Shown in pieces: positions 27,486-29,842 of a stretch of DNA of 64,000 bases; position 1 is the first letter of the stretch, and every line of letters begins with the position of its first letter. The notes beneath the pieces were generated by a model. The model had not been told where the DNA came from. It did no database searches and was given only the letters and a program-made list of their open reading frames with translations. The translations under genes and the position numbers were made by a program. The stretch is from NCBI RefSeq assembly GCF_036507355.1, contig NZ_AP027877.1; one strand, given 5' to 3'. Source of the DNA: Escherichia coli. Its GTDB lineage: Bacteria > Pseudomonadota > Gammaproteobacteria > Enterobacterales > Enterobacteriaceae.

Positions 27486-28019
27486 TTAAATACCTTTATT
27501 CTTTATACGATTAGCTCGCCAACTCGCAGTAAAAATGGGGAAAAGTGCATGTTTATCCTGAGATTTGGAGCCGAAAAGTGTTTCCGGAGTAAGATTAACA
27601 GGCAATATCTCATGTCTGGATTTGTAGATATACGTGGAATTCCAATTGGTATCTTTTGTAGGATTCAACATATCATGTAAGCGCTGGGAGCTTACCACCA
27701 TAACTGGCCCATCATCGACAGAGGAGAACAAGATAAAGATATTATCGTTTCGTGTTAATTCATTCGTGTTAAAGGTTCTTAAATTATCTTCAATTTCTAT
27801 AAATAAAGGTGAAACATCATCACTACGAATCCACTCTTTATAAAGATGCCAGGCATTTTCTTTGATCGTATCATTCGTTGATCGTAGAGCCTGATCGATA
27901 AGTTGGATAAAAAAATTGTTATTTCGATCAATCAGCCATTTATTCATATTAAATCTGTTAATAAAATCGATCATCTGTTGGGTATCGAAATTCACCTTAC
28001 TGAATCGATTTTGACGCAT
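27486..28019 (-). pseudogene. yjbI: C-terminal fragment (176 aa) of IS1-disrupted yjbI
   Basis: Frame continues exactly from the upstream fragment once IS1 and one copy of the 8-bp target duplication are removed. Confidence 0.7.
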
Positions 28020-28079
28020 AAAATGGTGATGCTGCCAACTTACTGATTTAGTGTATGATGGTGTTTTTGAGGTGCTCCA

Positions 28080-28355
28080 GTGGCTTCTGTTTCTATCAGC
28101 TGTCCCTCCTGTTCAGCTACTGACGGGGTGGTGCGTAACGGCAAAAGCACCGCCGGACATCAGCGCTATCTCTGCTCTCACTGCCGTAAAACATGGCAAC
28201 TGCAGTTCACTTACACCGCTTCTCAACCCGGTACGCACCAGAAAATCATTGATATGGCCATGAATGGCGTTGGATGCCGGGCAACAGCCCGCATTATGGG
28301 CGTTGGCCTCAACACGATTTTACGTCACTTAAAAAACTCAGGCCGCAGTCGGTAA
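28080..28355 (+). CDS. insA: IS1 InsA
   Basis: 91 aa; [40 protein letters not shown] zinc-finger/HTH protein; GTG start. Confidence 0.95.
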
Positions 28356-28777
28356 CCTCGCGCATACAGCCGGGCAGTGACGTCATCGTCTGCGCGGAAA
28401 TGGACGAACAGTGGGGCTATGTCGGGGCTAAATCGCGCCAGCGCTGGCTGTTTTACGCGTATGACAGGCTCCGGAAGACGGTTGTTGCGCACGTATTCGG
28501 TGAACGCACGATGGCGACGCTGGGGCGTCTTATGAGCCTGCTGTCACCCTTTGACGTGGTGATATGGATGACGGATGGCTGGCCGCTGTATGAATCCCGC
28601 CTGAAGGGAAAGCTGCACGTAATCAGCAAGCGATATACGCAGCGAATTGAGCGGCATAACCTGAATCTGAGGCAGCACCTGGCACGGCTGGGACGGAAGT
28701 CGCTGTCGTTCTCAAAATCGGTGGAGCTGCATGACAAAGTCATCGGGCATTATCTGAACATAAAACACTATCAATAA
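28274..28777 (+). CDS. insB: IS1 InsB (transposase C-terminal frame, expressed as InsAB' by -1 frameshift)
   Basis: 167-aa frame overlapping insA, typical IS1 InsB sequence. Confidence 0.93.
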
Positions 28778-28792
28778 GTTGGAGTCATTACC

Positions 28793-29842
28793 CATAAAAT
28801 TATCGAACTTGTTATCTTCATCAGGATGGATATAACTACGTATAATGGGATCTTTTATATAAGGACCATGGCTAAATATTTTCTTCATATTCTCAATAAA
28901 GTTTTTATTAACAATATTAAGAATTTTTAATTGCATCACCAGTTTTACTGCCAGAACGGATTTCAATATCGCTGGATCATCTGGCAACGAATCAATCATT
29001 TTTATAATGTTATTGATATAACCATCGAGATATTCATTTCCAAATATATCTGAGTAATCAATAGATAATACCATTAGTTGTGTAACGCTGTCTTTAAAAT
29101 TCCCTGTCGATATTCGCACATGATCAAACATAACAGCTGTTAAATTCGATTTAATAAATGATATTTCTTTGTCAGTAAGAAATTCTGCTCTTGTGAAGTG
29201 CGAAGCATAAAGATAACAATGATCGAAGTTTGAATTTCTAATCTGACATTCACAAAAATTACTATGAGTAAGTTGACTCTGCGAGAAGTCAACTGTATCA
29301 AGAATATTTTTGCTAAAATCGACATAATCACCACTCGCTTTGATAAAAATTACATTGTGTAAACGTCGACATTTAAATATGACATTATCAACTATTGCAG
29401 TAGTAAAATTGCAATCCCCAATTTCTTTACATTCGAATGTTACATGTTGTAGATTTGATGATAAAAAAGATACCTTTGAAAGAACATCACCTTTAAAATG
29501 ACAACTTGTTAAATCCAAATCAGACAGGTCGATATACCCCTGCGCATCTTTAGCCATCATAAAATCACAAGCACATTCTATTTCTTCATTTCTATAAAAT
29601 TTTACGCTTACAATATCACCACTGATTGAGACTTCACGAAACATATTTATTGAATGATTTTTTTCGTTCCGTTGTTTTATATTTAAAAAAATATTGCTGA
29701 TATAAATAAAGTTTTCTCGATTTAACCCTGGCACCCCATTAAAATTACGTAGTAAATCAAGGTCTACTATATTATTTCCTTGCACCACATCATATTTCGT
29801 CAAAAAGTTATTGCCGCCAGAATTTGGGATATGACTTATCAT
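28793..29842 (-). pseudogene. yjbI: N-terminal fragment (350 codons) of IS1-disrupted pentapeptide-repeat protein gene yjbI
   Basis: AT-rich ORF with pentapeptide-like repeats; reading frame runs into IS1 and ends after 26 IS-encoded codons. Confidence 0.7.

Follow-up and report, generated by a model that had tools for sequence, protein, structure and literature searches.

The insertion sequence (IS) IS1 is 768 bp long, has the InsA/InsAB' arrangement and leaves target duplications of 8 or 9 bp (PMC12428005). This report concerns one such insertion in yjbI, also named espX4, within a 64,000-nt stretch of Escherichia coli DNA (NCBI RefSeq assembly GCF_036507355.1, contig NZ_AP027877.1), which is called the window below. 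The gene yjbI is known, dispensable and frequently decayed. In E. coli O157:H7 Sakai, an intact espX4 (ECs_5021) lies between malM and ubiC and is annotated as 'T3SS effector-like protein EspX' (T3SS, type III secretion system), and the espX4 identity is also supported by a published report (PMC5931665). The K-12 counterpart, b4038 (yjbI), is annotated as a pseudogene of 1581 nt and contains no IS1. In the structure of the enterohaemorrhagic E. coli (EHEC) ligase NleL, residues 593-615 form the hinge helix, and the catalytic Cys753 comes after it, within the C-lobe (PMC3013003). In the window, the gene is flanked by ubiC (26766-27263) and malM (from 30071), all three being on the minus strand; it is split by an IS1 element, and our analysis supports a recent, lineage-specific insertion.

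A complete IS1 element and its target duplication

The element occupies 28025-28792 on the plus strand (768 bp) and is of the IS1A type, as judged from its termini and from comparison with the K-12 IS1A. The left end reads GGTGATGCTGCCAACTTACTGAT and the right end, as its reverse complement, GGTAATGACTCCAACTTATTGAT; between the left terminal inverted repeat (IRL, 28025-28047) and the right one (IRR, 28770-28792), 18 of 23 terminal positions pair. On the same strand, insA (28080-28355) is an open frame with a GTG start that encodes 91 aa, and its product matched Pfam PF12759 and PF03811 at full length and above the cut-offs, with Zn_ribbon_InsA and HTH_Tnp_IS1 among the matches. The insB reading frame (28274-28777) is also open and supplies the C-terminal part of the InsAB' transposase; here DDE_Tnp_IS1 (PF03400 being among the three Pfam matches) was covered from position 1 to 131 of 131, above the cut-off. 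The -1 programmed frameshift motif AAAAAAC (A6C) is located at 28331-28337 (position 307 of the IS), where slippage into the -1 frame yields a stop-free InsAB' of 232 aa. Compared with the K-12 IS1A, 766 of the 768 nt are identical, and the two substitutions are at positions 444 and 486 (G for T). Many annotated IS1A-family copies, on chromosomes as well as plasmids of E. coli, match this variant at 100% identity, and the window holds no further IS1 copy. Length, inverted repeats, insA/insB' frames, domains, an 8-bp duplication and near-identity to the reference all place the element in the IS1 family, and it is complete and potentially active. A sequence-only reading of the window had already described a complete 768-bp IS1 with intact insA/insB and a frameshift site, and the termini, open frames, Pfam matches and 232-aa InsAB' bear this out.

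The element is bordered by two copies of CATAAAAT, at 28017-28024 on the left and 28793-28800 on the right. These flanks, which had been reported as an 8-bp direct repeat, proved identical on re-inspection: they match at 8/8 positions, do not extend to 9 bp, and would agree by chance at the local base composition with a probability of about 4e-5. On the gene strand the octamer reads ATTTTATG and corresponds to gene nt 1043-1050, and since it covers codons N348-F349-M350, the split into 350 and 176 codons given in the sequence-only reading is correct. The 5' fragment (28793-29842, minus strand; codons 1-350) holds the pentapeptide repeats together with the beginning of the SopA central domain, and the 3' fragment (27486-28024, minus strand) comprises gene nt 1043-1581, with the duplicated octamer counted in. 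IS1 interrupts the SopA central domain and runs antiparallel to yjbI/espX4. When 28025-28800 (IS1 and one repeat) is excised, 29842..28801 is fused with 28024..27486 on the minus strand, and the resulting open reading frame (ORF) is 1581 nt long and has 527 codons with the terminal stop only, so that it encodes 526 aa. The rejoined ORF of about 526 aa that had been proposed is thereby recovered with no internal stop, and the exact protein is on record at NCBI, residue for residue, as EOM5648546.1 and HGC1725303.1.

The element and the duplication are all that a simple transposition contributes, so that taking them out must restore the gene, and the description of the insertion as "exactly in frame" carries no information beyond the transposition mechanism itself. 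The sequence-only reading had taken the intact duplication and the perfect frame together as signs of recency. Recency is supported, as described below, but the frame continuity is determined by the mechanism and is uninformative.

Assemblies are well known to go wrong at IS copies, and public contigs ending at yjbI did prove to be adapter artefacts; both would speak for an IS1 repeat misplaced into this AT-rich gene during assembly. A mis-join, however, would not yield a perfect 8-bp duplication exactly at the IS1 termini with collinear flanks, and to the left and right of the element the sequence is collinear with O157 Sakai and with the near-identical draft genome described below. We regard an artefact of this kind as very improbable. 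Almost certainly, the insertion is real and simple, without rearrangement, and it is best explained by the transposition of an IS1 copy of the active type into yjbI (= espX4) on the chromosome of an E. coli strain. The target was cut with a stagger, filling of the gaps duplicated the 8 bp CATAAAAT, and the insertion at codons 348-350 would have inactivated the gene.

The disrupted gene is yjbI/espX4, a member of the SopA family

The reconstructed protein matched the NCBIfam equivalog NF007264, 'SopA family protein', with 1164.1 bits against a cut-off of 326 and over profile positions 2-512 of 512. In Pfam, the SopA central domain was found at residues 293-424, and Pentapeptide_4, Pentapeptide and Pentapeptide_3 were found within residues 140-252. 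The earlier description of an AT-rich pentapeptide-repeat yjbI therefore holds in its composition (31.9% GC) and in its repeats (aa 140-252), but as a name it falls short, and the gene is better called yjbI = espX4, encoding a SopA-family protein, than simply a pentapeptide-repeat protein. Its GC content is to be compared with 50.4% for the window; such a low value is typical of acquired DNA, and yjbI/espX4 was probably acquired horizontally. EspX4 may be secreted or translocated by a type III system, a view taken from its annotation as a 'T3SS effector-like protein'.

The K-12 gene decayed in another way. It has stops at codons 65, 78 and 80 and is then back in frame (locus L005, 4204-5784), which indicates a compensated pair of frameshifts. 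The statement in the sequence-only reading that yjbI is a pseudogene in K-12, with no IS1 at this site, agrees with both the annotation and these stops. The window allele differs from K-12 yjbI at 150 of 1581 nt, and the gene is highly polymorphic.

Sequences in the PDB that matched the reconstructed protein were those of SopA (3sy2, 2qyu and 2qza; E about 2e-12) and NleL (3naw and 3sqv; E about 3e-9). The alignment to SopA spans chain residues 176-434 of 621 and ends at about the start of the hinge helix, and YjbI itself ends 11 residues past the alignment end, at residue 526. The NCBIfam model for HECT-type E3 ligases, NF011904, reached 70.9 bits, below its cut-off of 500, and was covered only over profile positions 56-422 of 606. 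An alignment that stops near the hinge helix, 11 residues short of the end of the protein, leaves no counterpart of the C-lobe or of Cys753: neither was found in the reconstructed protein by the structure-sequence alignment or in the coverage of NF011904. By these comparisons YjbI/EspX4 is a SopA-like protein with a beta-helix and an N-lobe, which NCBIfam assigns to the SopA family, and it is not a HECT-like ligase.

Empty sites and the age of the insertion

The reconstructed empty site (1,775 bp) was used as a query against 5,426 complete E. coli genomes. It matched 4,298 of them, and in 4,244 one location accounted for 80% or more of its length; the best match, at 99.0% identity, carries the annotation of an intact SopA family gene of 1581 nt. 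The window junction itself, searched with a 120-bp left-junction query as a single high-identity piece, was present in 0 of the 5,426 genomes. Apparent full-coverage matches to the junction consisted of two pieces 67-461 bp apart, i.e. of IS1 inserted elsewhere in yjbI, and were rejected. An exact-match scan for the junction in the GTDB representative genomes also gave 0 matches.

A much closer relative was found among draft genomes. The third-party-annotation (TPA) assembly GCA_044688185.1 encodes the 526-aa protein on contig DBBFKB010000009.1, and we compared it with the window over 21,581 nt within 17486-39842. Only 6 positions differ (19293, 27066, 33235, 35319, 35360 and 39020), which corresponds to 99.97% identity, and none of them is among the 1581 nt of yjbI. 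The site in this assembly is empty, with a single CATAAAAT that both flank alignments overlap. An alignment of the reconstructed ORF to yjbI of other strains, which had been suggested as a check, thus yields an intact 1581-nt gene and, in this draft, the identical allele. The nearest complete E. coli genome, in contrast, is just 98.7% identical over 23 kb (window 29000-52000); because the draft reaches 99.97%, the lineage of the window is poorly sampled among complete genomes.

An empty site in so close a relative could also arise if IS1 were ancestral to the lineage and had been lost from the relative by precise excision, which is mechanistically possible between the 8-bp repeats. Precise excision of IS1 is very rare. 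In addition, the site is empty in all other genomes that carry the locus, and the two gene fragments have not decayed at all, with 0 differences from the intact allele in 1581 nt; we therefore give this history hardly any credence. The claim of a recent event in the lineage of this strain stands, and a recent and lineage-specific insertion is supported by a junction that is absent elsewhere, a near-identical relative with an empty site and unchanged gene fragments.

Two points limit this reading of a recent, inactivating insertion. First, 'recent' is relative, since the relative differs by about 2.8e-4 per site and an unsampled sub-lineage could share the insertion. Second, the loss of YjbI/EspX4 function is inferred, and so are the absence of polar effects on ubiCA and the selective neutrality of the insertion. 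Nothing in the data contradicts a simple recent IS1 insertion.

Assembly contigs at this locus can be deceptive. The exact 177-aa ORF that lies downstream of the insertion in the window was also found on 5 Logan contigs. As these start shortly before the ORF, they seemed to be broken at the same IS1, but they actually contain uninterrupted yjbI fused to a Nextera adapter, with an empty site, and do not support the insertion. In the Logan contigs L011-L014, the first 20-30 nt are the Nextera adapter (AGATGTGTATAAGAGACAG) joined to the middle of yjbI, which produces spurious truncated gene calls that mimic IS breaks.

Products expected from the split gene

The 5' fragment lies in an ORF (28712-29842) that continues into IS1 and encodes a 376-aa chimera with 350 native and 26 IS1-derived residues; this chimeric ORF was not found on record. 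At best, the product of the split gene would be this truncated chimera, which lacks the C-terminal 176 residues and with them part of the N-lobe-like domain. On the other side of the element, the duplicated ATG of M350 starts an ORF of 177 aa (28019..27486, minus strand). A promoter and terminator scan at the junctions gave counts at or below the shuffle expectation (7 promoter-like sites, with 9.5 ± 2.7 expected). A hybrid promoter created by IS1 and driving the 3' fragment is accordingly unsupported, since the consensus scan found no promoter-like excess at the junctions, and expression of the 177-aa ORF seems unlikely. A polar effect on the downstream ubiCA is presumably irrelevant, because a 222-bp intergenic region precedes these genes and they are assumed to have their own promoter.

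Recurrent IS1 insertions in yjbI

The gene is a recurrent IS1 target across E. coli, with at least 12 different insertion positions. At least 53 complete genomes carry IS1 in the locus in the same orientation, with at least 80% of the query covered; this search joins same-strand pieces only. These genomes might have been thought to share the window insertion, but mapping of those inspected showed different sites, and sharing was rejected. IS1 copies in yjbI were placed on the gene for 13 further complete genomes and for the window, and together these hold 12 distinct sites in the 1.58-kb gene, including the window site at 1043-1050, with duplications of 9 bp in 7 cases and 8 bp in 5. The other sites are at gene nt 112-120, 122-130, 373-380, 473-481, 582-589, 706-714, 856-862, 977-984, 1030-1038, 1457-1464 and 1499-1507. 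The insertion at 706-714 is in the opposite orientation, and the one at 373-380 has ISVsa5 nested inside IS1 (L023). One further genome (L009) has a deletion adjacent to IS1 that removes gene nt 123-738. The orientation of 11 of the 12 alleles as in the window was rejected as a bias of the element; it is an artefact of the search, which selects same-strand pieces.

The site at gene nt 122-130 was found in two genomes, with the target-site duplication (TSD) AAGTTATCT. The element is annotated as IS1B in one genome and as IS1A in the other (L002 3043-3810 and L020 1843-2610), and the two copies differ at 3 nt, while the flanks are identical, with 0 differences in 600 nt. This pattern suggests a single insertion followed by gene conversion between IS1 copies.

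So many independent positions raise the question of whether the window insertion is a neutral accident at all. It could instead be one recurrent instance of a general process, in which either yjbI/espX4 is a preferred IS1 target, as AT-rich foreign DNA bound by nucleoid proteins (possibly H-NS), or its loss is favoured, as that of a catalytically truncated SopA-like effector relic in strains that lack the cognate secretion system. The 12 different positions among the 13 inspected genomes and the window, the IS1-adjacent deletion, the at least 53 genomes with same-orientation IS1 in the locus, the inactivation of K-12 yjbI by other lesions and the 32% GC of the gene in a 50% GC background all speak for such a process, and IS1 reportedly prefers AT-rich targets. 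However, uniform targeting would already place about 20 genome-occurrences in a 1.6-kb gene (about 12 IS1 per genome in 5,426 genomes, with shared ancestry ignored), and the uninterrupted locus is kept in 4,244 of the 5,426 genomes. We consider a genuine hot target or favoured loss to be a tentative possibility, with somewhat worse than even chances.

Significance

The yjbI::IS1 allele of the window is an ordinary strain-level polymorphism, in which only this particular allele is new and both the element and the gene are known. It matters little beyond strain typing, and three points deserve mention. First, the junction marks this lineage specifically, as none of the 5,426 complete E. coli genomes has it, and could serve as a polymerase chain reaction (PCR) or k-mer marker for the clone. 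Second, the strain carries an apparently active IS1. Third, espX4 is often listed as a 'virulence gene' in VFDB-style screens, and annotators should score it as disrupted in this strain. In addition, the recurrent IS1 insertions in yjbI make a small case on which IS target preference, or the decay of effector-like genes, can be tested.

Elsewhere in the window, a 1.6-kb accessory insert with two genes lies between tyrB and alr (11347-12929). Its genes, both on the minus strand, code for an AAA-family ATPase (11350-12378) and a nicotinamide riboside transporter, PnuC (12351-12908). O157 Sakai lacks the insert, whereas 867 of the 5,426 complete E. coli genomes have it.

Comparison with known systems

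Compared with the IS1 of K-12 (IS1A/IS1E type), the window element has the same length of 768 bp, the terminal repeats, the insA/insB' frames with the A6C frameshift, the 232-aa InsAB' and an 8-bp duplication, and it differs by the two substitutions (444 and 486) and by its genomic location. The gene shares the malM-ubiC position and the 1581-nt length with Sakai espX4 and K-12 yjbI; the three alleles differ in their state, being split by IS1 in the window, intact in Sakai and a pseudogene through other lesions in K-12. With Salmonella SopA and EHEC NleL (= EspX7), YjbI has in common a beta-helix of pentapeptide repeats and, after it, a helical domain that resembles the N-lobe, whereas the catalytic C-lobe belongs to SopA and NleL and not to YjbI/EspX4. 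The other yjbI::IS1 alleles have the same element family, the same target gene and duplications of 8 or 9 bp; they lie at positions unlike that of the window allele, and the nearest of them, in strain NN5, is 5 bp away.
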